Source: a virus (lineage: Duplodnaviria; Caudoviricetes). From it: DNA of 64,000 nt. Within the stretch, counting starts at the first letter, position 1, and every line of letters starts with the position of its first letter. Shown here in pieces: positions 3,513 through 63,429 of this stretch. Below the pieces are notes generated by a model that had not been told where the DNA came from, searched no databases, and saw only the letters and a program-made list of their open reading frames with translations. A program made the translations under genes and the position numbers. The DNA is taken from the IMG/VR virus record IMGVR_UViG_3300032225_001322, positions 32,001 to 96,000 of that record; one strand, 5' to 3'.

Positions 3513-5831
3513 CTATAATTTACAAGCTTCACAATCTTCTTGATCGTCAAAATCTATCACTTCTAATTTTTCTTCTACTTCGTCTTGACCTTTACTACCT
3601 TGTTTATTGATCAAACTATAGTAGAAAGTCTTTAATCCCCATCTATGTGCCGACATTAAATTTTTAGCAATTAATGTAGTTGGTACTTTTCTATCTGGAA
3701 AGTGAGCGGGATTATAGAAAGTGTTAGTTGAGATACTTTGATCTACATAAGCAGCTAATACACTAGCAGTCTTAAGATAACCATCGCAATCCTTCTGTTC
3801 CCACATCAATTGATATTTATTTTTTAATTTATTGTACTCGGGCGCTACTTGAATTAAACTTCCTGCCTTTGATTCTTTAACAGTAATTAAACTCATTGGT
3901 AATTCAATACCATTTGTACTATTAATAACAACACTACTTGACTCCACTGGTGCTACAGCCATTAATGTGCCATTGCGTACTCCGTACTCTTTCATATTAA
4001 TGCGTAGTGTTTCCCAGTCGAGTTCAGGAGTAAAATCAGTTAACTCATTGACTGCCTTGGCACGAAGTTCCCACGGGAATGTGCCTTGGCCATAGCGTGT
4101 TTTATCTGAATGTAAACAAGGACCGCGTTCTTTGGCAAGTTCCACTGTGGCTTCTGTTAAGTAAAATGCTTGATGTTCCATCCAGGATTTAACTTCGTGT
4201 AAAGCATCTTTTTCACCGTACTTCAAACTACGCTTGGCGTGCCAGTAGGCTAGGTTAGTAATGCCAATGCCCAAGGGCTGGATTTCGTCATTGCTTAACT
4301 GTGACTGAATGGAAAGAAAATCTTGGTAGTCCAAAATATTACACAGGCTACGCTGGAGTATGCGACAAGCACGGCGCATGTCTTCTGGATTACGGAAAGC
4401 TCCCCAATTGATGGAACCCAGCGTACAAAGAGCGATACGACCATCGCTGTCATCCAGACGTTTAAAGGATTTAGTAGGAAGAAGTATTTCACAACAAAGG
4501 TTACTCTGGTAAATGGTATGGAATTCAGGATCAAACGGACCTTGATTCTGAACATTGTCAATGAACACAAGATAGATACGGCCTGTGTCAGTGCGCTCTT
4601 TTAATATGCCGCCTTTGAATACATCTTCGGCGTTCATTACTTTCTTGCGTAAATCTTTACGCCGTTCGTATTTTACATACAGCTCTTCAAAGCGTTCTGT
4701 ATTTTGATAAAATGCTTCGTATAAGTCAGGTACTTCGTTAGGATCAAAGAATGTAATATTTTCTTTATTCTTAAACCGTCTCCAGAAGAAAGCAGACAAT
4801 ACAACACCGTAGTCCATAAATCTCACACGGGTTTCATCAGTTCCTTGATTGTTCTTGAGTACGATAAGATCGTCAAACTGATAGTGCCAAATTGGATAAA
4901 ACACAGTAGCAGAAGCATTGCGAATTCCTCCCTGCGAACAACTTCTTAAATCACCAAACCATTTTTTAAGGAACGGTACCATACCAGTGTGCATAACTTC
5001 GCCACCACGGATAGGACTACCTAGTGGTCGTAAGCGGCCAATTTCTAAACCTATGCCGGCTCGTTTAGCGGCATACTTGGCCATCATCTCTCCAGAAGCA
5101 AATATGCTATCCAGATTGTCGTCACTGCGGATAAGCACACAACTAGAAAACTGTTTAGTCGGAGTGCCAAGACCAGCCAGGACAGGTGTAGCAAGAGTAA
5201 ACAAACCATCGGATGCCGCACCATAGTATTCTTTAATGTAACGCATACGAGCACTATTCGGTTCTTCTTTATGGAAGACTGTAGCCGCTGCAATAATATA
5301 TCTAACCTGCGGAGTTTCATAAATTTCTTTTGTAGCTCGGTTTCGTACCAAATATTTTTCAATAAGTTGTTCAATAGCAGCATAACTGTATCCTTCGTCT
5401 TTCTCATGGTCAAGCATGTCATTCATCTTATTCCAGTCTTCTTCTGTGTACCATTCAAGAAGTTCTGGAGTATAAAGACCAGTAGCTACATTCTTTTTTA
5501 CAATTTCGTATAAATGCGGAGGTTCGTATGAACCATATACATCTTTGCGTAACATTGACAAACGTTGTTTACCGGCCACAAATTGATAGTTAGTATGACC
5601 TATGTCTGGATTAGCTTCTACATCAATAAGATCTACTATAGCTCTTAAAGTAATACCATCGATTTCTTTCGTAGTAATTCCATCATAAAAATGTAATTGC
5701 GCTTTAATTTCAATCATTGACTGACTCACATCAGCAATACCTTGGCATACTTTGGCAACCTGTGCCTGCCACTTGTCAATATGTAGTGGCTCTCTTGCAC
5801 CATTGCGTTTAACTACTGTAATTTGCGTCAT
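3513..5831 (-). CDS. nrdA: Ribonucleotide reductase class Ia alpha subunit
   Basis: ATP cone (VVKRNG), FSSC, SNLCCEI, ALCTLG, KTFYY, C-terminal CEAC. Confidence 0.98.
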   Translation of the reverse strand: MTQITVVKRNGAREPLHIDKWQAQVAKVCQGIADVSQSMIEIKAQLHFYDGITTKEIDGITLRAIVDLIDVEANPDIGHTNYQFVAGKQRLSMLRKDVYGSYEPPHLYEIVKKNVATGLYTPELLEWYTEEDWNKMNDMLDHEKDEGYSYAAIEQLIEKYLVRNRATKEIYETPQVRYIIAAATVFHKEEPNSARMRYIKEYYGAASDGLFTLATPVLAGLGTPTKQFSSCVLIRSDDNLDSIFASGEMMAKYAAKRAGIGLEIGRLRPLGSPIRGGEVMHTGMVPFLKKWFGDLRSCSQGGIRNASATVFYPIWHYQFDDLIVLKNNQGTDETRVRFMDYGVVLSAFFWRRFKNKENITFFDPNEVPDLYEAFYQNTERFEELYVKYERRKDLRKKVMNAEDVFKGGILKERTDTGRIYLVFIDNVQNQGPFDPEFHTIYQSNLCCEILLPTKSFKRLDDSDGRIALCTLGSINWGAFRNPEDMRRACRILQRSLCNILDYQDFLSIQSQLSNDEIQPLGIGITNLAYWHAKRSLKYGEKDALHEVKSWMEHQAFYLTEATVELAKERGPCLHSDKTRYGQGTFPWELRAKAVNELTDFTPELDWETLRINMKEYGVRNGTLMAVAPVESSSVVINSTNGIELPMSLITVKESKAGSLIQVAPEYNKLKNKYQLMWEQKDCDGYLKTASVLAAYVDQSISTNTFYNPAHFPDRKVPTTLIAKNLMSAHRWGLKTFYYSLINKQGSKGQDEVEEKLEVIDFDDQEDCEACKL

Positions 5832-29893: not shown

Positions 29894-32182
29894 TTATCTA
29901 ATGAAAATAGAACTGACAGATTTCATAGCGGTTAAATTGGAGTTTTCTTGTCCATCTGTAGTAGTATCAGTTTCTCTAATACCAGCTAAGAATTTAATTC
30001 TAGACATCATATCTTCGTCAGTGCCTTCTACTGGCTCTAATTTACCAGAATGTCCGTATGGTCCAGTTAACGCTGTATTTTCGTTGACTTCTTTGGATTT
30101 GTGTAGTTTGGCTTTGAGCATTTTTAATTTTTGACTTAGTGGATCATTTAATCCTACACGGCCACCACTGCGAACAATCTTTTCAATTTCGTCTTGTACT
30201 TTTGTCATTTGGTTAACAATACTACCGTTTTCTTCTAAGAAATTGCCGCCACCAACACTTTCTTCAAAATCGCCATTAATACTATCCCACCACTCAGCGG
30301 CTTCTTCTGGAGTCATACCGTATTCCCCAGCATTTGCAATAAAAGCATCTCGGTCCAAACTTTCAGCTTCTTTCCATAACCAGTCTTTCATGGCGCCTTC
30401 TTCTAATTTACCAAGAGCTTTGTGTATGCCATGGCGGCGCTGATCGTCTTTGCGACTATTTTCTTTATCAAACTTTGGTTCACGATCATTCATTGATGTG
30501 CCTGCATCTACACCTTGGTCAAAGTTACGCATCGCACGATCGGAACTTGCGTGTTTAACATAGCTCTTTAATGTATCTGGGCTTAGTTCGTCAAGTTCTT
30601 CTGCGCCTTGATTGGAGCTTTCCAAATCTCTAATAGCGTTATTAACCCAACCGCTTACATCACTACTGCCAATTTCTTCAACATCACCTATCCATTCGGC
30701 TTGATCACGAGCGGCAGTCATAACCGCTTCTGGGCCAAACTTGGCTAGTAAATCTGGATGAGACATCATAATACGATTGATAATAGCAGATTCTACTGGA
30801 CTTGCGTCATCTGTATTGAAAGTTTCTTTTACTGGCTCATTTGCTTGTTTTGTTACTGGTACCCATTGACCGTTTTTAAATTCGCGTTGTCCACCAACAC
30901 CGCCAACATATTCATCTAATTCTTCTTGCCCAGCTTCTGGAGTTTTTAATTGGCCAATAACTTGAGCAATATCTGGATTATCTTTTAACTCTTCTAAACG
31001 ATTAAGGATAATTTCGCGGGCATCAGCATTGGCATCTTGTTCGGCTAACTCTTCTAAACGGTCAAACAATTCGTCATCGCCAAGTAAATCATATAACAAT
31101 TCTGTTGCGTTAGTAGCATCGGCACCAACTGGCAATTCTTGACTGAGCAATGTTACTAAAGCAGTTTGTTTTTCTTTAGTATCGGGAATCGCCCATGTAC
31201 CTTCAAGAATAAGGTTTGTCCAATTTTCAAATATGTTAGCTTCTTTCATGTTGTGTTCCTGTTGTAATTTTGCCAATAACGGCAATGCTTGTTCAATTCT
31301 TGAATCAATGTTTTGTTCTACAAACATATGACGCAAATCTTCGATAATAACATCTTCATCAGTTAATGCTGCTGGATTCCATGATTCAAAATATTTTGTG
31401 TATCCAACTTTTGTACTTAAACTTTTTAAATTACTTTGTAATGTTTCAAAATAATGTGTAGCCTGTTCTACTAACTGTTGTGTTTCGCCTTCAAAGATTT
31501 TACCTTGATTAGCCCGGCGGAAACGACTCAATAAATTCATTTCTTCAACAATAGTAACAATGTGATTGCCACGAATATCGTAAGGCTTGCCGCCTTGGCG
31601 TACATGTTCTAGCATGGCGCGGCCAGCAGATAATTTTGTAAACGGAAGTTTAAATCTTTCGCCGTCTGCTGTTTCAATAAACAACGATTGTATATTACGG
31701 AAGCGAGCTTCGCCTTCGCCTATATTGCGTTTATGTTTAATCAGTAAGCGAGCTTGTGTAGAATCGGCATTCCAGGATAAATCTTTTTTACCTTGCCAGG
31801 ATTCAAATAACCCTTCGCTAATTGCCGCTTGACCCTGCATACTATATTTTAATTTGTTTAAATTTTGTAATGTAAAACTGAATAAATTCCTTTTGGCAAA
31901 CATACGAAGTTGATATAGGAAATCAAACCAACCCTTTTTATCATCGCCTTCCATGCTTTTACCAATATTATCGCCAAAGTAAACATTTAGGTCATTTTCA
32001 TCGTTGAGCATAATAACTACGGTGCCGTAGTCTTGTCCTGATTCGCCTTTGTAATCAAAAGAAAACAAATCTGCTTCTTCGGGGGAAGCGGCTGGCTTGC
32101 CCTGATTGTTTAATGACTGTGGGTCAAAATTCTTGCTGATAAGCAAGTCATTTAGCTTCTGGTTAGCGTTGTTTTGTGCCAT
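29894..32182 (-). CDS. Large acidic late protein, probable head/core component
   Basis: 762 aa; GCTAAATA 7 nt upstream; C-terminal half made of modules after LDE/LEE/VNE sites. Confidence 0.65.
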   Translation of the reverse strand: MAQNNANQKLNDLLISKNFDPQSLNNQGKPAASPEEADLFSFDYKGESGQDYGTVVIMLNDENDLNVYFGDNIGKSMEGDDKKGWFDFLYQLRMFAKRNLFSFTLQNLNKLKYSMQGQAAISEGLFESWQGKKDLSWNADSTQARLLIKHKRNIGEGEARFRNIQSLFIETADGERFKLPFTKLSAGRAMLEHVRQGGKPYDIRGNHIVTIVEEMNLLSRFRRANQGKIFEGETQQLVEQATHYFETLQSNLKSLSTKVGYTKYFESWNPAALTDEDVIIEDLRHMFVEQNIDSRIEQALPLLAKLQQEHNMKEANIFENWTNLILEGTWAIPDTKEKQTALVTLLSQELPVGADATNATELLYDLLGDDELFDRLEELAEQDANADAREIILNRLEELKDNPDIAQVIGQLKTPEAGQEELDEYVGGVGGQREFKNGQWVPVTKQANEPVKETFNTDDASPVESAIINRIMMSHPDLLAKFGPEAVMTAARDQAEWIGDVEEIGSSDVSGWVNNAIRDLESSNQGAEELDELSPDTLKSYVKHASSDRAMRNFDQGVDAGTSMNDREPKFDKENSRKDDQRRHGIHKALGKLEEGAMKDWLWKEAESLDRDAFIANAGEYGMTPEEAAEWWDSINGDFEESVGGGNFLEENGSIVNQMTKVQDEIEKIVRSGGRVGLNDPLSQKLKMLKAKLHKSKEVNENTALTGPYGHSGKLEPVEGTDEDMMSRIKFLAGIRETDTTTDGQENSNLTAMKSVSSIFIR

Positions 32183-51331: not shown

Positions 51332-52731
51332 TGCAACAATATTTTTTCGACGAACAACTCCGTCGCTATCTAATTCAATTTGCTCGTATGTTTTCAGGCT
51401 TCCAAGTAGAGTTTGGACGCAACGAAGCAGGTGCTGCTGGAACTGGCGATACATTATATCGTGTACCCGTGCGTTATGGAGATGCTAGTCGGCAAGCACA
51501 AGTTATCCTACAAGAAAATAGTGCTAGTAATATGCCGTCAACTCCCTTGATGACATTTTATGTTACTGCTCTAGATTTTGATCGGCCACGCATGCAGAAT
51601 CCAACTTATGTTGATAACAAGAGTATCCGTCAGCGTGAATACGATTCAGCTACAGGAACTTATGAAACTACCCAAGGTAATGCTTTCCAAGTAGAGCGTT
51701 TTATGCCGGCTCCTTATAAATTAAGTATCAATTTAGATATCTGGACTAGTAATACTAATCAAAAAATGCAGTTACTGGAGCAAATATTGCCATTGTTCAA
51801 TCCAAGTTTGGAAATACAAAGTACAGATAGTTTTATGGATTGGACTAGTTTAAGTATTGTAGAGTTAGTATCTACAGGGTGGAGTAGTCGTGGTGTTCCG
51901 CAAGGTACCGAAGATCCTATTGATATTTCTACACTTAAATTTGTCTTGCCCATATGGTTATCATTGCCTGCTAAAGTTAAAAAACTTGGTGTTGTGGAGA
52001 CTATTATTGCTAGCATCTATGACGGCAAAGGCGACATGGTCAACGCTATTCGTAATAATGATTTGTTGTTAGGTACACGACAATATATTACGCCATACGG
52101 TTATCAAGTTGTATTAATTGGAAACAAATTACAAATTTTAGCTCGGTCAGCTGTAGTTGATGAAGCAAACAACGAATTGCCGCCACCAGATCCAGTGGAG
52201 CCAAGTAATCTAAATTGGACTCCTGTGGTCAACATGTATGGAACATTGCGTCCAGGTATTAGTATGATTGCCCTTACACAGGAAGATGGCTCAAAAGTAT
52301 TTGGTACCGTGGCGTTTGACCCGACAAATGATCAATTTCTATTGTTTACTGTCATCGAAGAATCGATTCCCCCTAACACATTATCGCCTGTAAGTTCAGT
52401 TATTAATCCCTTGGCAAGTGGTCCAGGACAAGGTTTGCCGGCAGCAAGTACAGGGCAGAGATATTTGTTAACTGAAGGTACTGGTAGTGATAATGGTTAT
52501 GCTCAAGCCTGGGCTGGTACTACTGGACAAATATTAGTCGCACATCCTAACGATATTATCGAGTACGATGGGAATCAATGGGTAATTTCTTTCAGTGCTG
52601 AGTCTAGTCCTGTAAATACACAATATGTCACCAATATTACAACCGAAATTCAATACAAATGGACTGGCCATAATTGGGTTAAATCATATCAAGGTCTCTA
52701 CCCAGGCGGCCAATGGGCACTAATAATTTAA
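51331..52731 (+). CDS. Tail sheath stabiliser/terminator (gp15-like) with C-terminal extension
   Basis: YFFDEQLRRYLIQF, VPVRYG, PAPYKL, QLLEQILPLFNP. Confidence 0.8.
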   Translation: MQQYFFDEQLRRYLIQFARMFSGFQVEFGRNEAGAAGTGDTLYRVPVRYGDASRQAQVILQENSASNMPSTPLMTFYVTALDFDRPRMQNPTYVDNKSIRQREYDSATGTYETTQGNAFQVERFMPAPYKLSINLDIWTSNTNQKMQLLEQILPLFNPSLEIQSTDSFMDWTSLSIVELVSTGWSSRGVPQGTEDPIDISTLKFVLPIWLSLPAKVKKLGVVETIIASIYDGKGDMVNAIRNNDLLLGTRQYITPYGYQVVLIGNKLQILARSAVVDEANNELPPPDPVEPSNLNWTPVVNMYGTLRPGISMIALTQEDGSKVFGTVAFDPTNDQFLLFTVIEESIPPNTLSPVSSVINPLASGPGQGLPAASTGQRYLLTEGTGSDNGYAQAWAGTTGQILVAHPNDIIEYDGNQWVISFSAESSPVNTQYVTNITTEIQYKWTGHNWVKSYQGLYPGGQWALII

Positions 52732-53162
52732 AAATAGTCAACGCTGTTGGCATTTGGTTTTACAGTCAATCAACTAATCGATATTTGTATTTGGTTCGCA
52801 ATGATCCAAAACATCCAGACTCCTGGGGTTTACCTGGTGGCAAAATGGAGCCAGGTGAAAGTATTATGGCGGCCATGGTTCGCGAGTGCGAAGAAGAAAT
52901 TGGCAGTATGCCCGACTACGTTAAACTCATGCCGTTAGAGAAATTTACTAGCAGTGACGGTGGGTTCGCTTATAACACTTTTTTCTGTGTGGTAGAAAAT
53001 GAATTTAGTCCCAGACTGAATAACGAGCATTCGGGATATGCTTGGATTGATTCAGGCACTTGGCCTAAACCACTTCATCCAGGACTATGGTCAACTATAA
53101 ATTTTCAAGCAGTACAAAGTAAAATTTCTATTATACAACAACAACTTCAAACATCGCAGTAA
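52713..53162 (+). CDS. Nudix hydrolase
   Basis: Nudix box GGKMEPGESIMAAMVRECEEEIG; NEH, LHP. Confidence 0.9.
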   Translation: MGTNNLKIVNAVGIWFYSQSTNRYLYLVRNDPKHPDSWGLPGGKMEPGESIMAAMVRECEEEIGSMPDYVKLMPLEKFTSSDGGFAYNTFFCVVENEFSPRLNNEHSGYAWIDSGTWPKPLHPGLWSTINFQAVQSKISIIQQQLQTSQ

Positions 53163-53810: not shown

Positions 53811-55571
53811 TTATGCCGTGTAGGTAAATGTTGCTGGAGTACCAGGACTTGGTGTTGTATAAGTCAAGACGGTATAGCCTGGGGCCGCTGGCGGTGTAGT
53901 TACAGTTGCCCCTGGAGCTGTTCCTGGATAACTAGGAGTTGGTACTGCTATGATAACTGTGCCAGATCCGCCAGCTAGCCCAAGTCTATTGGGGGCTGAA
54001 CCGCCACCACCACCTGATCCACCAGAGCCAAGGCCGTTTACACCAGCTGTTTGTGGTCCACCCGATATGCCTCCACTACCACCACCTGCGTATGTTAATC
54101 CAGTGTATGACCAAGTATATCCAGTACCGCCAGCGCCGCCTCCACTGCCTGGTGCTCCAGGAGATCCAATGCTACCAGCACCTCCACCTCCACCGCCAGT
54201 TCTATAAGTTGCGCTGTCGGTACCACCGTTACCACCAGCAAAACCTAAACCGCCACTGGTGCTGCTAGGTTGTGTAGCTGACCCGCCAAGGCCAAGAGGC
54301 CCTCCTGAAGAAGGTGCTCCGCCGCCTCCACCTGATCCTCCTGGATTACCGCCAGTAAAACCAGATGCTCCATATCCGCCACCTAATGCTACGAGATTAC
54401 CTACTATATTTCCAGATATAATACTATTTCCACCATTAACGTTGCTTCCAACAGTTGACCCAGCACCAACAGTGATGGTATAGACTGTGCCACTAGATAA
54501 TGTAATTACTCCAGTTAATAATCCGCCACCACCACCACCGCCAGATCGTTCATCAACTCCAGGAGAGGTAGTACCGCCAGAGCCACCGCCTCCAACAACT
54601 AGATATTGTGCTGTGATAACTGGTGCCAATGTGCCCGGGCTAGTAAATGTATGTACATAGTATCCAGGTGCCGCTGGATTACTCGCTCCTGGTGTTACAG
54701 TTCCGCCGCCAAATAATTGTGTTGAGCTAGCATAAGCAATTGCAACTACACCAGAACCACCGGCGCCGTTAGTATAGTTGGCATAAGGACTACCGCACTG
54801 ATATCCGCCACCTGCTCCGCCGCCACCGGTTCCGGGTGTACCTGGATTTCCAGCTCCACTCAATCCATTAGCACCTGGTGTAGCATTGCCGCCACCGCCA
54901 GGTCCTCCACTACCTGCTGATAAACCCCCTGGGCCTAAAGATGGGTTAGCATATACACCGCCACCGCCGCCACCAGCGTATGTATTTCCAGTATATGTCC
55001 AAGTATATCCAGCACCGCCGTTACCTGTAGTTAAGCCTGGGGCACCGGCAGCTCCTGCGCCACCGCCACCACCTGATCTATCGTTTGGCGCAGTTGGTAT
55101 TTGGCCGCCACCGCCGCCACCTGGATAACCTTGTTGGGTAGGTCCTGGATAACCACTCCCTGATCCGCCTGTTGATGTGCCACCTGGTCTACTACCTCCA
55201 CCGCCAGAGCCGCCCGGTACACCATTAAGCCCATCTGTTCCAGCTCCACCACCACCACCTACAGCAGTTACAGTTGTAAATCCTGAGCCCGAAATACTAC
55301 TATTTGCTCCTGAATTTCCAGGAGGACCAAAACCATACGGTGGACTTGCTGTTGCTCCAGTTCCGCCAGAACCAACTGTGATGGTATACACAGCTGAAAG
55401 AGGAGATGTTATATTTCCCGACAAAACTCCGCCACCACCGCCACCGCCCCCAATTCGAACACCGCCTGCTCCGCCACCGCCCACAACTAGATATCGTATT
55501 GTAACAGATGGCTCAAATTGTATAGAAACTCCGCCTGAAAAAGTAATGCCGCCTGTGATCTCTAATGCCAT
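53811..55571 (-). CDS. Glycine/proline-rich tail-fibre-like protein with two tandem Gly-rich domains
   Basis: Duplicated YLVVGGGG...YTITVG...GYTW-x-YTG-x-TYAGGG...GGSG-x-V units; many PG/SP/TP. Confidence 0.8.
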   Translation of the reverse strand: MALEITGGITFSGGVSIQFEPSVTIRYLVVGGGGAGGVRIGGGGGGGGVLSGNITSPLSAVYTITVGSGGTGATASPPYGFGPPGNSGANSSISGSGFTTVTAVGGGGGAGTDGLNGVPGGSGGGGSRPGGTSTGGSGSGYPGPTQQGYPGGGGGGQIPTAPNDRSGGGGGAGAAGAPGLTTGNGGAGYTWTYTGNTYAGGGGGGVYANPSLGPGGLSAGSGGPGGGGNATPGANGLSGAGNPGTPGTGGGGAGGGYQCGSPYANYTNGAGGSGVVAIAYASSTQLFGGGTVTPGASNPAAPGYYVHTFTSPGTLAPVITAQYLVVGGGGSGGTTSPGVDERSGGGGGGGLLTGVITLSSGTVYTITVGAGSTVGSNVNGGNSIISGNIVGNLVALGGGYGASGFTGGNPGGSGGGGGAPSSGGPLGLGGSATQPSSTSGGLGFAGGNGGTDSATYRTGGGGGGAGSIGSPGAPGSGGGAGGTGYTWSYTGLTYAGGGSGGISGGPQTAGVNGLGSGGSGGGGGSAPNRLGLAGGSGTVIIAVPTPSYPGTAPGATVTTPPAAPGYTVLTYTTPSPGTPATFTYTA

Positions 55572-55622: not shown

Positions 55623-55644
55623 AAAAAAGCACCCTAGAGTGCTT
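55623..55644 (-). terminator. Intrinsic terminator ending the glycosylation island
   Basis: AAGCAC-TCTAGG-GTGCTTTTTT on the minus strand. Confidence 0.8.
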
Positions 55645-55740: not shown

Positions 55741-56004
55741 TTAATTGTTTTTGCCCCAACTTACCCTGGACCATACTCGCTCATGCGACCAATATATAAA
55801 AGGCTTAACAATCATTTCTGTAGCGCCTATGCCTAGACTAAGAATAAATTCGCCAGTGATTATATAAGAAATTACTATTGTCGTTAGTGTACCACAACAA
55901 CGATAGCTGTAGGCTTTAACAAGACTGCGCCAGGCAGTCTCGCTATTATTTAAGGCCCAGCTCTTTACGAATCTTTGTAGCACTGATGTCTGTAATGCTT
56001 TCAT
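55741..56004 (-). CDS. DUF2061-like small membrane protein (start uncertain)
   Basis: ETAWRSLVKAYSYR...YWSHERVWSRVSWG; nearest ATG is 56004, inside the upstream gene. Confidence 0.7.
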   Translation of the reverse strand: MKALQTSVLQRFVKSWALNNSETAWRSLVKAYSYRCCGTLTTIVISYIITGEFILSLGIGATEMIVKPFIYWSHERVWSRVSWGKNN

Positions 56005-56785
56005 CAAATGTTTCTTCTCCGCTAGTATAACCCACGCCACGACCCCATCCAATGTGTACAATATTAGGCACTACTTGTATTTCATATTGCCCTTGATATA
56101 CAGGATCTAAATCACGCCGAATAAATGCTTTAACTTTTTCTACTTCAAATGGATTACTACCTTGCCATCCTTGCACATCACGAATTTGTATGACCACTTG
56201 ACCAGTACGGGCAATTAACCTTTCAAATAAGGCGCGGTGGCCATCATGCCAAGGTTGCCATCTTCCCATCATCTGCACTGTTTCTTTCTTCCAGTCAAAT
56301 CGAGGACGGCGACGATTGTCAATAATGTGTTGGCCGATAAACTCTGCCCACTTTTCTGCGTTTTGTTCTGTGATTCTAAAATCATATTGTTCAGGTTCAA
56401 CGAATGCCGCATTGGTATCGGCGTACCGACCTTCGCGGATAGTGTCTACCCAAATAGTCCAATCAGCTTTAAAGTTATTACGCATTTCAACTAAAGGAGC
56501 AACAAAGTCACAGATAACATAATCACCACCGGCTTCCATAGAGAACTGGAACATACGGATACTTTGACGAATACGACCATCATTACTGAAGTCCCAGTCA
56601 TTGTATTTTCTGCGAATATCGTCAGCATTAAACCAAGTTACTTGGCAATTAAAATCGCCAATGTGTTCGTTTAACGCACGACCATAACTCATATCACCGT
56701 GTTTTTCTAAGTACGTTTTAAGTTCTCCTGCTAAGGTAGTTTTACCTGAGCCAGGTAAGCCCATGATTAATATACGCTGTGACAT
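55946..56785 (-). CDS. APS kinase (CysC)-like domain fused to HxGH nucleotidyltransferase domain
   Basis: GLPGSGKTT, NADDIR, DFSNDGRIRQ, DFVAP, FVEP; then MMGRWQPWHDGH, NPF, ISATKIR. Confidence 0.85.
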   Translation of the reverse strand: MSQRILIMGLPGSGKTTLAGELKTYLEKHGDMSYGRALNEHIGDFNCQVTWFNADDIRRKYNDWDFSNDGRIRQSIRMFQFSMEAGGDYVICDFVAPLVEMRNNFKADWTIWVDTIREGRYADTNAAFVEPEQYDFRITEQNAEKWAEFIGQHIIDNRRRPRFDWKKETVQMMGRWQPWHDGHRALFERLIARTGQVVIQIRDVQGWQGSNPFEVEKVKAFIRRDLDPVYQGQYEIQVVPNIVHIGWGRGVGYTSGEETFDESITDISATKIRKELGLK

Positions 56786-57105: not shown

Positions 57106-59925
57106 CTACGGTCTCTTAAAATTAGCAAGATATTTTAAGAAAAAATCACTTTCCTCTTCAGGATCAACGACAAAGAAATCTATCATTTCGCCGTTTTCTC
57201 CATTCTGGAAAGCAACCTTCTCGGGTAATTTACCCTTGAAGGCAATACCATTTTGGGCACAATAACTATAAAAATGTTGTAATACACCCAACGACAATCT
57301 AATAGTCCAATCATCGCCGCACTTTTTCAAATCATTATGCCAAATATCCATACCCTTTTCTAGCCAAGTCATATCTGGGTTAGGATGCCCTGTAATAAAC
57401 TGACTCCAATAATCTACCATGATATAATGTCTAGCAAATACACGTTTAGGGTACGTTCTTACATTCTTATATATCAAATTAGCGTTTCTTCCTATGGCCT
57501 TACGCTTTAATGTTTCCTGATTTGCCAGTCCGTAGTGTGTTACATAAATGTGATCCTGCCAGAACATTTTGTTACCTAGGAAATGTTCATCATCTCTGCT
57601 GGGATATTCGTGTATGACGCCAGTAAATTGTATGCCAATATTATTTCTAAAGAATCTATCATGCATAACATCAACATTAACGCCATTTTCATGTGCTTTT
57701 TTGCTCATGGCTTGTACTTGGCGTAACAAAACACCATCGTAATAATCACTAATAATATATTTGTTCAAGGCCATGCTGTTTTCAAGCTGTTCGTCAGCAT
57801 CAATCCAAAAGATATAATCTCCGGTGGCAAGGCTAATAGAATAATTTCTTGCTCTAGCAAAGTTACCAAGCCCGTCCTCTTCTTCCCACACTAAATCATA
57901 AACTTTATCTGTGAATTTACGGGCAATATGTTTGGTATCATCGGTTGACCCTGTGTCTACAATTATAATCTCATCAGAGAAATCAGTGACAGTTTTTAAA
58001 CAACGACTAAGATTATCTTCTTCGTTACACACAATCATACAAGTAGATATAGTCTTGTACGGTCTAGTTTTGAGCCATTTGTCTTCGTAGTCAACATAAC
58101 CAAATTCAATGTTGTCATCTTTACTGGCGGTAAACCAGAACATCCAGTTACTGCACATTTCGCCCCTGCGACCCTTGGTGCTATGTGTATTTTTAGCTAT
58201 GGATAAATCAACATTTTTAAAAATAGCGTGTAAATCGTTTAATTCAAAGTGATGTACATGATGTATTTCTAATTTTTTCCGTTTAACCATATGTTCCCAC
58301 GGACCCATGGGTACAGTAAAATAAAACAATGTATTTTTGTTGGCAAGTTTCATCAAGAAATCAAGGAATTGTTGTGTATCTTCGATATGCTCTAGCAATT
58401 CTCCAACAAGTACAATGTCGGGTTGTAAGTCATATGTCAATACATTTCTAACATCGTCGACAATATAGTTTATCTGCGGATACTTCGTTTTATACTGTGA
58501 TTTAACATAGTCTAATACACCTTGTGATGAATCATACATAGTCAGTACTTCAATGTTTTTGGCAAATCTCTTCATCAAAGGTAATGAAAGAATACCATCG
58601 TTACTACCCAAGTCAAGGATTTTTAACTTCTTGTTGGGGAACATCTCAATTTCATTCTGGACAAGCTCAATTAACTTCATACCCCTGCCACTTAGATAAG
58701 CATCTTCATCTTTAGCTACAGGAGTAAAATCAGAAATAGTTAAGTTATCCTTTTCGCCTTGATCCAACATGTCACGATACTTTTGATCGCCAGTTAATTT
58801 CCAAGCGGCAACAATATCAGAATTATAAACTAATTGATCGATGATTTTGTCTTTGTATTTTTCATGTCTTTTGTTAAACATAAAATCAATTTCAGAGTTC
58901 CAAGATTTTGCTACTCTCTCCCAAGCATATGGTAGTATAGCTTTCTTAGCTTTGGTTACTTCGGCTTCGTAAACATCATCTTGATATTTGTCTAAATGTG
59001 CTAAAAACTTTGTTACATAATCTACAGTTCCGTAGTCGTCTGTAACCTTGACTTTAGTATCAGATTTTACAGTTTCTGACATGGCAAATTCATCTGTGGT
59101 AATAACTAAACAACCATTGTATTGTGCTTCGATAGCACTGATACAAGAAATCTCTGGGAAGTTTGTTGGATATACCATGTAGGCACACTTGGATAACAGT
59201 TCATAAAATTCACGCTTGGGCAAGTGACCAATCTGTTTGATATTGCGACTGTATTCTAATAAGTCTTCAACTTCCTTGTGTATCTTTTTAACATCGTCCG
59301 GCAATGTCAATGGATGCTCGTAGGTACAGATGTGTAGTGTCGCATCAGGATTGCGTTCAATAATCTCAGGCCAAATCTTTTCCAGTAATAATTTTAATCC
59401 ACGCTCAGGACGGCTAGCATAGATATAGTTGTTTTTCTTCTGCTCATATGGCACATACTCTGTTACAATCTCTTGGTCATATCCGTTAGAAGTCTTCCAC
59501 ACATAATTTGTTGGGTCAATATCATAGTTCTTAACAAATAAACCCTTGTGGAAGTCACTTAAACAGAATACCCTATCAGTACAACCTATAGCATCTCTAA
59601 AATTGTTAGTGTCAATATCGTGGCACCAGAGAATATTCATCTTACTATCAACCGGTAGTGCCAGGAAATCTGTAAATCTACTTACGATCAATGTATCAAA
59701 TTGTGATTTGTTGTCGTTAGTATATTGATCCACTGTACGATATTCTACACCATCGTACCAACCGGGGGAATCGCATTCGCAATAAACTACCACATCATTG
59801 CCCAGTTTGAACATCTCTCTGGCCATGTAGATTAGTGCCGATTCAGAACCGCCTAGTGCTTTTTCATTAACAGTATGTCCGTTAAATTTAAGTCCTGATG
59901 TTACAAATCCTATAGTTTTTTTCAT
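57106..59925 (-). CDS. Tri-domain GT-B (GT4-like) + SAM methyltransferase + GT-A (GT2-like) protein (start MKKTIG at 59925)
   Basis: LGGSE, SRPERGL, FPEISCISAIEA; ILDLGSNDG, ELLEH; CMIVCNEE, IVDTGSTDDT, FARARN, WIDADE, IHE; ATGA overlap. Confidence 0.88.
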   Translation of the reverse strand: MKKTIGFVTSGLKFNGHTVNEKALGGSESALIYMAREMFKLGNDVVVYCECDSPGWYDGVEYRTVDQYTNDNKSQFDTLIVSRFTDFLALPVDSKMNILWCHDIDTNNFRDAIGCTDRVFCLSDFHKGLFVKNYDIDPTNYVWKTSNGYDQEIVTEYVPYEQKKNNYIYASRPERGLKLLLEKIWPEIIERNPDATLHICTYEHPLTLPDDVKKIHKEVEDLLEYSRNIKQIGHLPKREFYELLSKCAYMVYPTNFPEISCISAIEAQYNGCLVITTDEFAMSETVKSDTKVKVTDDYGTVDYVTKFLAHLDKYQDDVYEAEVTKAKKAILPYAWERVAKSWNSEIDFMFNKRHEKYKDKIIDQLVYNSDIVAAWKLTGDQKYRDMLDQGEKDNLTISDFTPVAKDEDAYLSGRGMKLIELVQNEIEMFPNKKLKILDLGSNDGILSLPLMKRFAKNIEVLTMYDSSQGVLDYVKSQYKTKYPQINYIVDDVRNVLTYDLQPDIVLVGELLEHIEDTQQFLDFLMKLANKNTLFYFTVPMGPWEHMVKRKKLEIHHVHHFELNDLHAIFKNVDLSIAKNTHSTKGRRGEMCSNWMFWFTASKDDNIEFGYVDYEDKWLKTRPYKTISTCMIVCNEEDNLSRCLKTVTDFSDEIIIVDTGSTDDTKHIARKFTDKVYDLVWEEEDGLGNFARARNYSISLATGDYIFWIDADEQLENSMALNKYIISDYYDGVLLRQVQAMSKKAHENGVNVDVMHDRFFRNNIGIQFTGVIHEYPSRDDEHFLGNKMFWQDHIYVTHYGLANQETLKRKAIGRNANLIYKNVRTYPKRVFARHYIMVDYWSQFITGHPNPDMTWLEKGMDIWHNDLKKCGDDWTIRLSLGVLQHFYSYCAQNGIAFKGKLPEKVAFQNGENGEMIDFFVVDPEEESDFFLKYLANFKRP

Positions 59926-61295
59926 TTGATGTCCTTGAGTACTTCTTTTAATTCTGTGTATGCTTCTTTCCAAATTTCTGGAGTTACTTGTCTAATCAAT
60001 CTTAAATTGTCACCATACCAACAAGCTGTTGGTTTGCCTTCTGCCCAAGTATAGTATTCCATAATTGGCACTAAAATAATAGTTTTCTTGCCCATGGCAC
60101 AAGCGGCATGTGCTACTGATGTACAACTTGTCACGATTAAGTCTAGATTATACATGATTCCCAACAAGTCGTCAAACGATTTAAGTTCCAAACTGAGGTC
60201 TTTAACTCGCGGGCTTTGTTTTAACTGTTCCATGCCCACATCACGCTGTATAGAGTATAAGGACCACCCATTGTCTTTTGGCATGGCATTAATCATGCTT
60301 TGTAAATTGAGTGTGCGATGTAATTCGTGGTCATATCTAGCGTTGCCTGCCCAGCGTAACCCTACTTTGTAATCGCCGGTTATAGTATTTTTATGTTTTT
60401 CGATATATTCTGGTTTGGCTTCTAAGTAAGGGCCAGTCCATAATTGATCGGCGTCAAGATCCAAAGTCTTTGGCAAATCCATCATAGGAGTCCAATAGTC
60501 ATAATCTCGTTTATTATATTCTTTGGTATTGATCATTTTGGTAAAACCAAGATGGCTATAAACACTGGTAATGCCATGTACTGACATAATAGAACAAGTC
60601 ATACCCATGGCTAATATGTTTTTAACAAATCTAACATTGATAATCTCGTCACCAATGCCGCCTTCTGCTACAAATAATAAATGCTTACCTGGGCGCGGTT
60701 TGCCATCCCATTCTGGCAGTCCATCTGTAACTTTGGAATATGAACCAAATACTTTTAATTTACGACCAATGGAAAGATGTTCCATACCTGCTTTAAAATC
60801 ACCTTGAGCTATATAGTGTACACCCATATTGAACAAGATAGAATCGGCCATGGTACCATCATACTTCCATAGATCTTTTTCTATGTTTTTTAATATTTCA
60901 TAGGATTCATCTTTCCTATTACAAGCAAATAATGCTGCTGAAAGGTCCAACATACCTTCGGCACCCATGTCTACATTGTTAGACATAAACTTAAATGCCG
61001 CCACTGCTTTAGTTGGTTTGTTTGCTGATAGATATACTTTAGCCAAGTTAGCAGATACTGCTAATTTTTCCTCAATAGACTTGGCCTGTTCCAATGCTTG
61101 CTCGCCGTATTCTATAGATTTAAGGAATTTTTTGGCTTTGTTATATCCAAAACAGTATAAATCGTTGCCCAACAAATCGTTTGGTACTACTTTATGTTTT
61201 TCAAAAGTTTCCAATAAAGTAACTATCTCGTCTAATAAATCAACACGGGCGAAGATTTCTATAGTTTGTTTTACAGCATCGTGATCGGTCATCAT
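59922..61295 (-). CDS. TPR-repeat protein with GT-B (GT9-like) glycosyltransferase domain
   Basis: Helical repeats, then WDG...EGGIGDEI, VGLRWAGN, LDLIVTSCTSVAHAACAMG, WY. Confidence 0.8.
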   Translation of the reverse strand: MMTDHDAVKQTIEIFARVDLLDEIVTLLETFEKHKVVPNDLLGNDLYCFGYNKAKKFLKSIEYGEQALEQAKSIEEKLAVSANLAKVYLSANKPTKAVAAFKFMSNNVDMGAEGMLDLSAALFACNRKDESYEILKNIEKDLWKYDGTMADSILFNMGVHYIAQGDFKAGMEHLSIGRKLKVFGSYSKVTDGLPEWDGKPRPGKHLLFVAEGGIGDEIINVRFVKNILAMGMTCSIMSVHGITSVYSHLGFTKMINTKEYNKRDYDYWTPMMDLPKTLDLDADQLWTGPYLEAKPEYIEKHKNTITGDYKVGLRWAGNARYDHELHRTLNLQSMINAMPKDNGWSLYSIQRDVGMEQLKQSPRVKDLSLELKSFDDLLGIMYNLDLIVTSCTSVAHAACAMGKKTIILVPIMEYYTWAEGKPTACWYGDNLRLIRQVTPEIWKEAYTELKEVLKDIK

Positions 61296-62649: not shown

Positions 62650-63429
62650 TTACTTAAGGTGTTTCCAGAAATCCATTTGCTCAAGATGATTAAACAAATC
62701 CATAGGTAATATTGTCTGGCGTTCTTTAAACTGTACCTTCTGACGGACATGATGTAAACCATTGATGTTCATGTCAGCGTCAAACTCGTCATAGTCGCCT
62801 TGGACATTTTCAAAGTCATGTTCATACCATGGCTCGCCGACGAATTCATAAATTTTCTTCATAACCAATTTAGGATTCTTAGCAAGTTGGTCGTATTGTA
62901 CGACCATGATGTTTTCTTTATTTGGTCCGAACATAGCTTGTTTGACACCGTCGTAGGCAAAGCCGACAAACGCACTTGGGTCTGTTAAATATTTGGCGCG
63001 ACTGTAAACACTCACGCCAGCACCTTGCGGAAACATGTTAGGTACATCATAAGGATTCTTGGCAAACAATGTTTCAAAGCTGTCGATGATCCAAGGAATG
63101 CTACGAATACATACAATAGTTTTAGCTTTAGGATACAAATCAGCCAGTAATGGTGTTAAGTATGTCCAACCGCGATTAGTATCAAATACTGTTGGCGAAC
63201 TATCTTTGTAATAGGTGTCAGTAACAGAGTGGATTAACTCTTTGCGTTTTTCTTTAGGACATTGAAACCGATATCCGCCTTGTGACTGCGACTCTTCGAT
63301 AATAGCTCTATAAAAACGAGCCAATGGTCCCGAGATTGAACTATTAAATTTTGGATTCTGTTTTAGAATTGACGATAATAGTGTTGTGCCCGCACGTGGT
63401 AGGCCAGAGATGAAATGAATATTTTCCAT
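62650..63429 (-). CDS. PAPS-dependent sulfotransferase
   Basis: 5'-PSB loop SGLPRAGTTLL, R...S 3'-PB, YDQL...P...MKKIYEF. Confidence 0.88.
   Translation of the reverse strand: MENIHFISGLPRAGTTLLSSILKQNPKFNSSISGPLARFYRAIIEESQSQGGYRFQCPKEKRKELIHSVTDTYYKDSSPTVFDTNRGWTYLTPLLADLYPKAKTIVCIRSIPWIIDSFETLFAKNPYDVPNMFPQGAGVSVYSRAKYLTDPSAFVGFAYDGVKQAMFGPNKENIMVVQYDQLAKNPKLVMKKIYEFVGEPWYEHDFENVQGDYDEFDADMNINGLHHVRQKVQFKERQTILPMDLFNHLEQMDFWKHLK

Follow-up and report, generated by a model that had tools for sequence, protein, structure and literature searches.

How might a bacteriophage activate sulfate with a protein of only 279 amino acids (aa)? The question is raised by a gene in a 64,000-nucleotide stretch, here called the window, which covers positions 32,001 to 96,000 of the IMG/VR record IMGVR_UViG_3300032225_001322 (Duplodnaviria; Caudoviricetes). 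The window comes from a large T4-like phage, of which the record covers a 152-kb fragment (43% complete); close relatives are uncultured freshwater phages with contigs of up to 383 kb. In a first-pass annotation the gene, which fuses a kinase to a nucleotidyltransferase, was read as a possible minimal synthase of 3'-phosphoadenosine 5'-phosphosulfate (PAPS), supposed to make adenosine 5'-phosphosulfate (APS) and then PAPS from sulfate and ATP for a sulfotransferase encoded in the same operon. Our computational analysis retains this interpretation as the best available explanation, and probably a correct one, with one correction: the putative sulfurylase would be a minimal transferase derived from NadM, a nicotinamide mononucleotide (NMN) adenylyltransferase (NMNAT), and no small Sat-type ATP sulfurylase. 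The gene and the parts of its product are as follows.

55946..56785, minus strand: fusion gene P0001 (kinase and nucleotidyltransferase, 279 aa), from the list of open reading frames (ORFs) and its translation; ATG start
56303..56785, minus strand: N-terminal domain, residues 1-161, shortened APS-kinase homolog by family profile and Foldseek
56735..56761, minus strand: Walker A P-loop GLPGSGKTT, residues 9-17, from the translation; K15 invariant in 42 diverse homologs
55949..56302, minus strand: C-terminal domain, residues 162-279 (118 aa), minimal nucleotidyltransferase of the HIGH superfamily, predicted from profile and fold to be NadM-derived
56237..56266, minus strand: GRWQPWHDGH, residues 174-183, HxGH nucleotide-binding motif; aligns to GRFQPFHKGH of MJ0541
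56027..56047, minus strand: WGRGVGY, residues 247-253, family signature YGR[D/G/K]VGY with invariant Gly-Arg
55967..55987, minus strand: ISATKIR, residues 267-273, second nucleotidyltransferase signature; aligns to YSGTEIR of MJ0541

The ORF at its stated coordinates, the P-loop and the motifs GRWQPWHDGH and ISATKIR were found as first annotated. The protein is real and no chance ORF, as shown by its matches to more than 7,600 90%-identity clusters, many of them full-length at 89-97% identity. Both halves are spanned by PHROG 10255 ('kinase', E 1.8e-43), and the AlphaFold2 (AF2) model of the whole protein reached a predicted local distance difference test score (pLDDT) of 92.3 and a predicted template modelling score (pTM) of 0.76.

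The first step towards an answer concerns the kinase half. Pfam APS_kinase (PF01583) matches residues 4-106 with 28.9 bits against a gathering cut-off of 21.1, and relatives score up to 61 bits; the match is limited to profile positions 4-93 of 152, and the apsK equivalog threshold TIGR00455 is missed by the fusion protein (22.6 bits vs 138.7). A profile of the kinase-domain family found solved APS kinases at E-values of 7.6e-17 to 1e-13, well above other P-loop kinases, and in a Foldseek search with the AF2 model APS kinases ranked first (target-normalised TM 0.69-0.76). Conservation was read from an alignment of 42 full-length homologs of wide diversity, which share 34-52% identity with the query; in it K15 and R58 are invariant and D55, F66, R71 and Q74 are each kept in at least 90%. 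R58, D55, F66, R71 and Q74 fall in the alignment on the APS-binding positions of APS kinases ((D)GDxxR, Phe, Arg..Asn) and on the catalytic Asp. Where DGD has its first Asp, the window protein has Asn and some relatives have Asp; the activity of human APS kinase depends on D87/D89 (PMC11697783). Since sequence profiles miss the last third of the APS-kinase model, we regard the N-terminal half, as far as profiles and alignment can tell, as a true but shortened relative and no equivalog, in which the APS-kinase fold is still recovered by Foldseek despite the unmatched third. The CysC-like kinase of the first-pass annotation has therefore been upheld by profile and fold, though in shortened form.

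As had been supposed, an HxGH nucleotidyltransferase makes up the C-terminal half, and it is intact: among the 42 homologs G174, R175, Q177, H180, H183, G248, R249, G252 and R273 are invariant, and I267 and S268 are conserved in at least 90%. Kinship with Sat, which had been invoked for this domain, holds at the level of the HIGH superfamily but no closer, the nearest families being NadM/NMNAT and phosphopantetheine adenylyltransferase (PPAT). While the match to Pfam CTP_transf_like is marginal (E 0.09), a profile of the C-domain family found the MJ0541 NMNAT (1f9a, E 3.4e-12) and NadM (2qjt, E 1.8e-10) in the Protein Data Bank (PDB), followed by NadR and PPAT. The structural check proposed earlier was informative in the same two ways, with APS kinases as top Foldseek matches of the kinase but a C-domain (model pLDDT 94) nearer to NadM and PPAT than to Sat; VIA gave Z-scores of 10.4 for NMNAT/NadM, 10.3 for PPAT, 9.1 for NadR and 8.6 for the ATP sulfurylase 1v47 of T. 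thermophilus, to which 115 of the 118 residues were aligned. An ESM Atlas search returned only 'cytidyltransferase-like' cluster names.

The domain is, however, no ordinary NMNAT. The NadM thresholds TIGR01527 and PRK01153 are missed (23-26 bits vs cut-offs of 127-181), the domain is shorter (118 vs 168 aa), and residues 76-108 of MJ0541, from strand 3 to the ISxT helix, are reduced to 8 residues in the C-domain profile, so that about 25 residues of the NMNAT core are gone. In NMNAT structures this stretch holds the residues that bind NMN and its nicotinamide. The signature YGR[D/G/K]VGY, which takes its place in the family and served as the family pattern for related loci, has no NMNAT counterpart in the HMMER alignment.

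An analogous triad (FHTRNxPHxxH, VGRDHAG, ISGTxIRK) is carried by Sat sequences of SAR11. The HxxH motif of Sat is present as H180-D-G-H183 with both His invariant, and the corresponding H425/H428 are essential in the human ATP sulfurylase (PMC11697783); Sat has (Q/H)TRNxP where the module has GRxQP, and of YGR[D/G/K]VGY only the Gly-Arg is invariant, at a spacing unlike that of GRDHAG. Membership in the Sat family was considered and rejected, as hhalign against six SAR11 Sat sequences returned a probability of 12% over 27 columns around the HxGH helix only and no Pfam hit was obtained. The proximity to NadM in profile and fold, together with the lack of specific homology to Sat, argues that the C-domain is a trimmed NadM-type transferase and no Sat, an assignment made from profiles and models.

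The next step is to ask where the two domains occur together. Besides the clusters at 90% identity, of which there are at least 7,600, the family comprises 1,804 representatives at 50% identity (E <= 1e-3). Cellular carriers belong to the Pelagibacteraceae, SAR86 and soil Alphaproteobacteria (Bradyrhizobium, Xanthobacteraceae, Hyphomicrobiaceae, Acetobacteraceae, Inquilinus), and cultured phage carriers are Sano/Salvo-like phages of Xanthomonadaceae and the Stenotrophomonas phage DLP_6. Many SAR11 and SAR86 genomes encode kinase and transferase as separate genes with overlapping stop and start codons, and in one genome (G066) the transferase gene lies directly 3' of a canonical-looking APS kinase of 170 aa; because of these arrangements it is the pairing of kinase and transferase, fused or not, that forms the conserved unit, here called the module. 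It is a widespread cellular and viral two-domain unit and no phage oddity. Papers and databases label its genes cysC or hypothetical, large freshwater phages are merely listed in the literature as cysC carriers, and our literature searches found no published description of this kinase-transferase fusion. Some variants differ in architecture: in P0150 a DUF4118 membrane domain precedes the whole module, in P0261 the kinase is joined to a PF00483 sugar-phosphate nucleotidyltransferase, and P0240 and P0262, whose genes may be chimeric or wrongly called, have the C-domain joined to partial chorismate synthase or 3-dehydroquinate synthase sequences.

Genome profiles bear on function. In a SAR86 family sample of 75 genomes, each at least 80% complete, Sulfotransfer_3 genes were found in 73, usually two to four per genome, and the module in 68, while profile searches detected Sat in 0/75 and AprB in 0/75; the latter zero is meaningful because the same AprB model detects AprB of SAR11. 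CysD adjoining CysNC was found in a single SAR86 genome (G189), which is one of the seven that lack the module. A literature search on SAR86 together with sulfotransferase yielded nothing. The complete chromosomes of a SAR86 (G028) and a Pelagibacter (G026) carry two and three sulfotransferases, respectively, and neither Sat nor CysD nor a canonical CysC was found in them. Among 151 SAR11 genomes the module is present in 95 (a count that includes one unpublished genome, G178, which affects no conclusion). Of the 51 with Sulfotransfer_3, 40 are module carriers (odds ratio 3.0, Fisher p 0.007); of the six with a CysNC-type fusion none carries the module (Fisher p 0.002). It was found in 11 of 12 SAR11 genomes with a standalone CysC, and Sat occurs in 6/151. 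The module behaves as expected of a PAPS source, co-occurring with sulfotransferases and being complementary to CysD-CysNC. In three SAR11 genomes (G134, G163, G107) a standalone canonical CysC adjoins sulfotransferase genes, the module lies elsewhere in the genome and no Sat match was obtained.

Within the window, two further genes matter for the question.

62650..63429, minus strand: sulfotransferase, likely PAPS consumer (Pfam Sulfotransfer_3 E 5.8e-16, Sulfotransfer_1 E 5.4e-11), upstream of the fusion gene
55741..56061, minus strand: DUF2061 small membrane protein (Pfam E 2.7e-16), start at 56061 (TTG) or 56004 (ATG)

The gene string runs from a 177-aa ORF through the sulfotransferase, two methyltransferases, a TPR protein, a 955-aa protein and a 92-aa ORF to the fusion gene and DUF2061; the five genes between sulfotransferase and fusion gene lie on the same strand with small gaps or overlaps, and the DUF2061 gene overlaps the 3' end of the fusion gene. 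The statement that no other ATP sulfurylase is visible was borne out by profile searches, which found neither Sat-type (PF01747) nor CysD-type (PF01507) sulfurylases anywhere in the 152-kb record (43% complete), the window included.

Of 80 related phage loci, 16 have a homolog of the window sulfotransferase upstream of the module, at most 5 kb away, and one further locus has it 2 kb downstream; among the neighbours in 16 long phage loci sulfotransferase is the second commonest Pfam family (five proteins) after radical SAM. A sulfotransferase lies 3 kb from the module in Inquilinus, and within four genes of the module the 13 soil alphaproteobacterial loci have Sulfotransfer_3 in two, ASST arylsulfotransferases in two and rhodanese in two. 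The homolog of the window sulfotransferase was not found in the cultured module-carrying phages (Sano-like, DLP_6), and cyanophages that have this homolog do not have the module. In the Sano-like phages the module lies directly 3' of a NADAR gene, which is preceded by an ORF annotated as hypothetical:

4978-5553 of locus L001 (Stenotrophomonas phage Bhz60) and 4978-5553 of locus L002 (Xylella phage Bacata): 192-aa sulfotransferase-like ORF, two genes upstream of the module

This ORF passes Pfam Sulfotransfer_4 (PF17784; 26.2 vs 22.8 bits) and has PAPS-binding-like motifs, SLPRSRSAW and VVHRPAREVAHS, resembling the 5'-phosphosulfate-binding and 3'-phosphate-binding motifs; a PDB sequence search with it gave no match.

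At least 20 of the 80 related phage loci have DUF2061 as the next gene after the module, and the JGI annotation of two of these phage proteins is CysN/CysC. A DUF2061 gene was also reported within Mesorhizobium nod loci alongside nodH, nodP and nodQ (bioRxiv 10.1101/2022.04.26.489235). In a gammaproteobacterial metagenome-assembled genome related to the SAR86 loci, DUF2061 (L135:8420-8608) lies between separate kinase and transferase genes. The neighbours in SAR11 and SAR86 are diverse (enoyl-CoA hydratase, CoA-binding, Rieske, M24 peptidase, YeiH-like, DoxX); on a SAR86 chromosome the module, split there into two genes (L159:8004-8411 and L159:8407-8778), lies between the genes of a membrane protein of the YeiH family (PF03601; L159:7055-7951) and a DoxX protein (L159:9016-9423), a possible link to sulfur or anion transport.

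Taken together, the SAR86 and SAR11 profiles, the sulfotransferase neighbours in four lineages and the link of DUF2061 to nodPQ and nodH point to PAPS synthesis including the sulfurylase step, and we consider it probable that the fusion gene encodes a compact PAPS synthase whose sulfurylase derives from NadM. From this pattern we infer the two catalytic activities and the use of sulfate as acceptor. In such an enzyme the C-domain, which keeps the ATP-binding motifs HxGH and ISxTxxR, would move AMP from ATP onto sulfate to give APS, and the N-domain would phosphorylate the 3'-OH of APS to give PAPS, whereby the kinase step would draw the unfavourable sulfurylase step forward. PAPS could then feed the sulfotransferase encoded in this gene string alongside glycosyltransferases and methyltransferases, with the small membrane protein DUF2061 as a frequent partner of the module. 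The part of the first-pass annotation that saw a supply line to the sulfotransferase of the same operon must be loosened: the sulfurylase step is favoured by comparative genomics, but the module is not tied to the operon, many carriers are without Sulfotransfer_3, and the activity itself is deduced.

Several observations weigh against this reading. At the level of the enzyme, sulfate binding and sulfurylase chemistry are putative, the likeness to the 'GRD' of Sat is weak, Gly-Arg alone being invariant and the window protein having GRG, and the C-domain stands nearest to NMNAT (E 3.4e-12, Z 10.4) and PPAT (Z 10.3), with Sat lower (Z 8.6; hhalign 12%). The C-terminal third of APS kinase, including the lid, is unmatched by sequence profiles, matches with the family profile stopping at its position 87 of 138. 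At the level of genomes, with Sulfotransfer_3 as the sole sulfotransferase family searched for in judging carriers, no such gene was found in 55 of the 95 module-positive SAR11 genomes, in an Acetobacteraceae chromosome with the module (G029) or in 16-19 of 25 related phage records, among them a 100%-complete genome of 383 kb. No sulfotransferase family is among the 25 commonest neighbour families in SAR11 and SAR86, where the module and its presumed consumers do not cluster, and several SAR11 genomes keep a separate canonical CysC beside sulfotransferases in addition to the module. The profile statistics for SAR86 and SAR11 (Fisher p 0.007 and 0.002 in the latter) ignore shared ancestry (phylogenetic non-independence) and genome incompleteness. 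The NADAR gene beside the module in Sano-like phages has no account in PAPS synthesis. Finally, AprB is present in both SAR11 genomes tested (G026, G027), and a preprint lists the AprA-AprB pair among the conserved adjacencies across 135 complete Pelagibacter genomes; SAR11 could therefore get APS from sulfite.

This last point leads to an alternative which we consider rather unlikely, namely that sulfate activation involves the kinase half only, with APS coming from elsewhere (host Sat or CysDN for the phage, AprBA for SAR11), while the C-domain would act on some other substrate in the manner of an NMNAT, or bind nucleotides for regulation or scaffolding. It agrees with NMNATs being the nearest relatives of the C-domain, with AprB in the two SAR11 genomes and with the conserved AprA-AprB pair of the preprint. 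A precedent for regulatory use exists in fungal ATP sulfurylases, which bear a non-catalytic APS-kinase-like domain. The structures 1m8p and 1i2d were among the PDB matches of the kinase-domain profile. However, the residues of HxGH, Gly-Arg and ISxTxxR are invariant across homologs of 35-60% identity, which argues for catalysis by the C-domain, and the two domains remain coupled, as fusions or overlapping genes, in distant lineages. Moreover, the kinase of SAR86 would be left without a known APS source, because sulfotransferases are present there and Sat, CysD and AprB are not.

Synthesis of another PAPS-like donor, a 3'-phospho-nucleoside-5'-diphospho-X for transferases with the sulfotransferase fold or for others, appears improbable. 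It has a model in the Campylobacter route Cj1415-Cj1418 to CDP-phosphoramidate 3'-phosphate, where Cj1415 is an APS-kinase homolog. The reference list of the paper on that pathway names the 3'-kinase step 'cytidine diphosphoramidate kinase'. The pairing of a kinase with PF00483 in P0261 and the varied tailoring enzymes around the phage modules (radical SAM, carbamoyltransferase, methyltransferases) would suit such a donor as well. Yet DUF2061 aside, no conserved partner enzymes, such as equivalents of a glutamine kinase or an amidase, were seen near the module, so the acceptor should be a common metabolite, and the distribution complementary to CysD-CysNC points to PAPS itself.

Very unlikely is a NadR-like enzyme for NAD+ salvage or counter-defence, composed of a nicotinamide riboside kinase and an NMN adenylyltransferase, even though GRxQPxHxGH and ISxTxIR are typical of the NMNATs of NadM and NadR, NadR joins an NMNAT to a P-loop kinase, phages are known to carry NadR (PMC9503650) and the Sano-like module lies directly 3' of NADAR. 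The kinase is specifically APS-kinase-like, with two conserved phosphosulfate-binding Arg that would have no role on nicotinamide riboside, which is uncharged; the NMNAT core is short of about 25 residues, and the profile relations to sulfotransferases and to CysNC would be unaccounted for. A role in NAD or coenzyme A (CoA) synthesis would also be redundant, since CoaE and CoaD/NadD-type genes were found in all five test genomes. For the same reason a CoA-synthase-like pair of PPAT and dephospho-CoA 3'-kinase is barely credible and was rejected, despite PPAT being level with NMNAT in the fold comparison (Z 10.3), the same chemistry of adenylyl transfer followed by 3'-phosphorylation and the enoyl-CoA hydratase and CoA-binding protein among SAR11 neighbours, the kinase being grouped by sequence profiles with APS kinases and away from CoaE.

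Returning to the compact PAPS synthase, we give about an even chance to a broader proposal: the module would represent a third class of ATP sulfurylase, a NadM-derived adenylyltransferase of about 115 aa that would function solely alongside a shortened APS kinase, apparently without a lid, in fused or coupled genes and often with DUF2061. No smaller PAPS synthase would be known. SAR86 and much of SAR11, which are abundant in the ocean and lack assimilatory sulfate reduction, would obtain PAPS mainly from it, and in phages it would be an auxiliary gene for sulfating surface or virion glycans. If this is true, sulfate activation would have a third enzymatic route besides Sat and CysDN, arisen by trimming an enzyme of NAD biosynthesis and coupling it to a kinase that pulls the unfavourable reaction. 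The PAPS source would be explained for SAR86, with its two to four sulfotransferases per genome, and for many SAR11 cells, which are unable to assimilate sulfate; phage glycan sulfation would be freed from the PAPS supply of the host. A new annotation would be due for thousands of genes now listed as 'adenylylsulfate kinase', 'DNA polymerase III delta prime' or 'hypothetical', and an enzyme of 279 aa would appeal to biocatalytic sulfation as a minimal means of regenerating PAPS.

Some features of the surrounding locus remain to be recorded.

55627..55644, minus strand: terminator-like hairpin after DUF2061, closing the gene string; a pattern match from a consensus scan
57106-59973, minus strand: 955-aa protein with GT1 glycosyltransferase, S-adenosylmethionine-dependent methyltransferase and GT2 glycosyltransferase domains in one polypeptide
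53811-55571, minus strand: 586-aa repetitive protein rich in Gly/Pro/Ser/Thr, directly downstream of the glycan-modification operon
52713-53162, plus strand: Nudix hydrolase, just past the gene of the tail sheath stabiliser

The gene of the repetitive protein sits in a local GC peak (50% vs about 39% elsewhere), and its product may be a fibre that receives the decoration. Nudix genes were also found about 1-1.4 kb from the module in four related loci.

How does the module compare with systems already known? With CysC/APS kinase (PF01583) it shares the P-loop, the catalytic Asp, the Arg/Phe/Arg substrate-binding positions and the overall fold; it differs in matching profile positions 4-93 of 152 only, in scoring far under the equivalog cut-off and in having Asn for the first Asp of DGD. 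The transferase has GRxQPxHxGH, ISxTxIR and the first three strand-helix units in common with NadM NMNATs (MJ0541, 1f9a; NadM of Francisella and Synechocystis), from which it is set apart by two losses, one of about 25 residues ahead of the ISxT helix, after strand 3, and one of the C-terminal 35 residues, by the invariant Gly-Arg loop that NMNATs lack, and by always being paired with an APS-kinase-like domain instead of Nudix. Sat (PF01747) belongs to the same HIGH superfamily, and a motif triad of HxxH, G-R loop and ISGTxxR is seen in SAR11 Sat; the C-domain, with GRxQP in the position of QxRN and no PUA-like domain, is about half as large as the catalytic domain of Sat (212 profile positions). 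Rhizobial NodP/NodQ (CysD/CysNC) with NodH likewise provide a dedicated PAPS supply beside a sulfotransferase for glycan sulfation, with DUF2061 reported in the locus, but their sulfurylase is of the GTPase-coupled CysDN type with an unrelated fold. In the Campylobacter pathway to the methyl phosphoramidate (MeOPN) donor, which uses two further enzymes and CTP, an APS-kinase-like 3'-kinase and a nucleotidyltransferase (Cj1415/Cj1416) similarly make a PAPS-like donor for glycan decoration. The animal PAPS synthases PAPSS1/2 are analogous in design. The human enzyme is far larger (623 vs 279 aa) and has a Sat-type sulfurylase with a PUA-like domain, where the phage protein has a NadM-like domain of 118 aa related to Sat at the superfamily level only; nevertheless, both are single polypeptides with the APS kinase N-terminal and the HxGH adenylyltransferase C-terminal, in the order already noted in the first-pass annotation, and the same two-step chemistry is proposed for both (PMC11697783).

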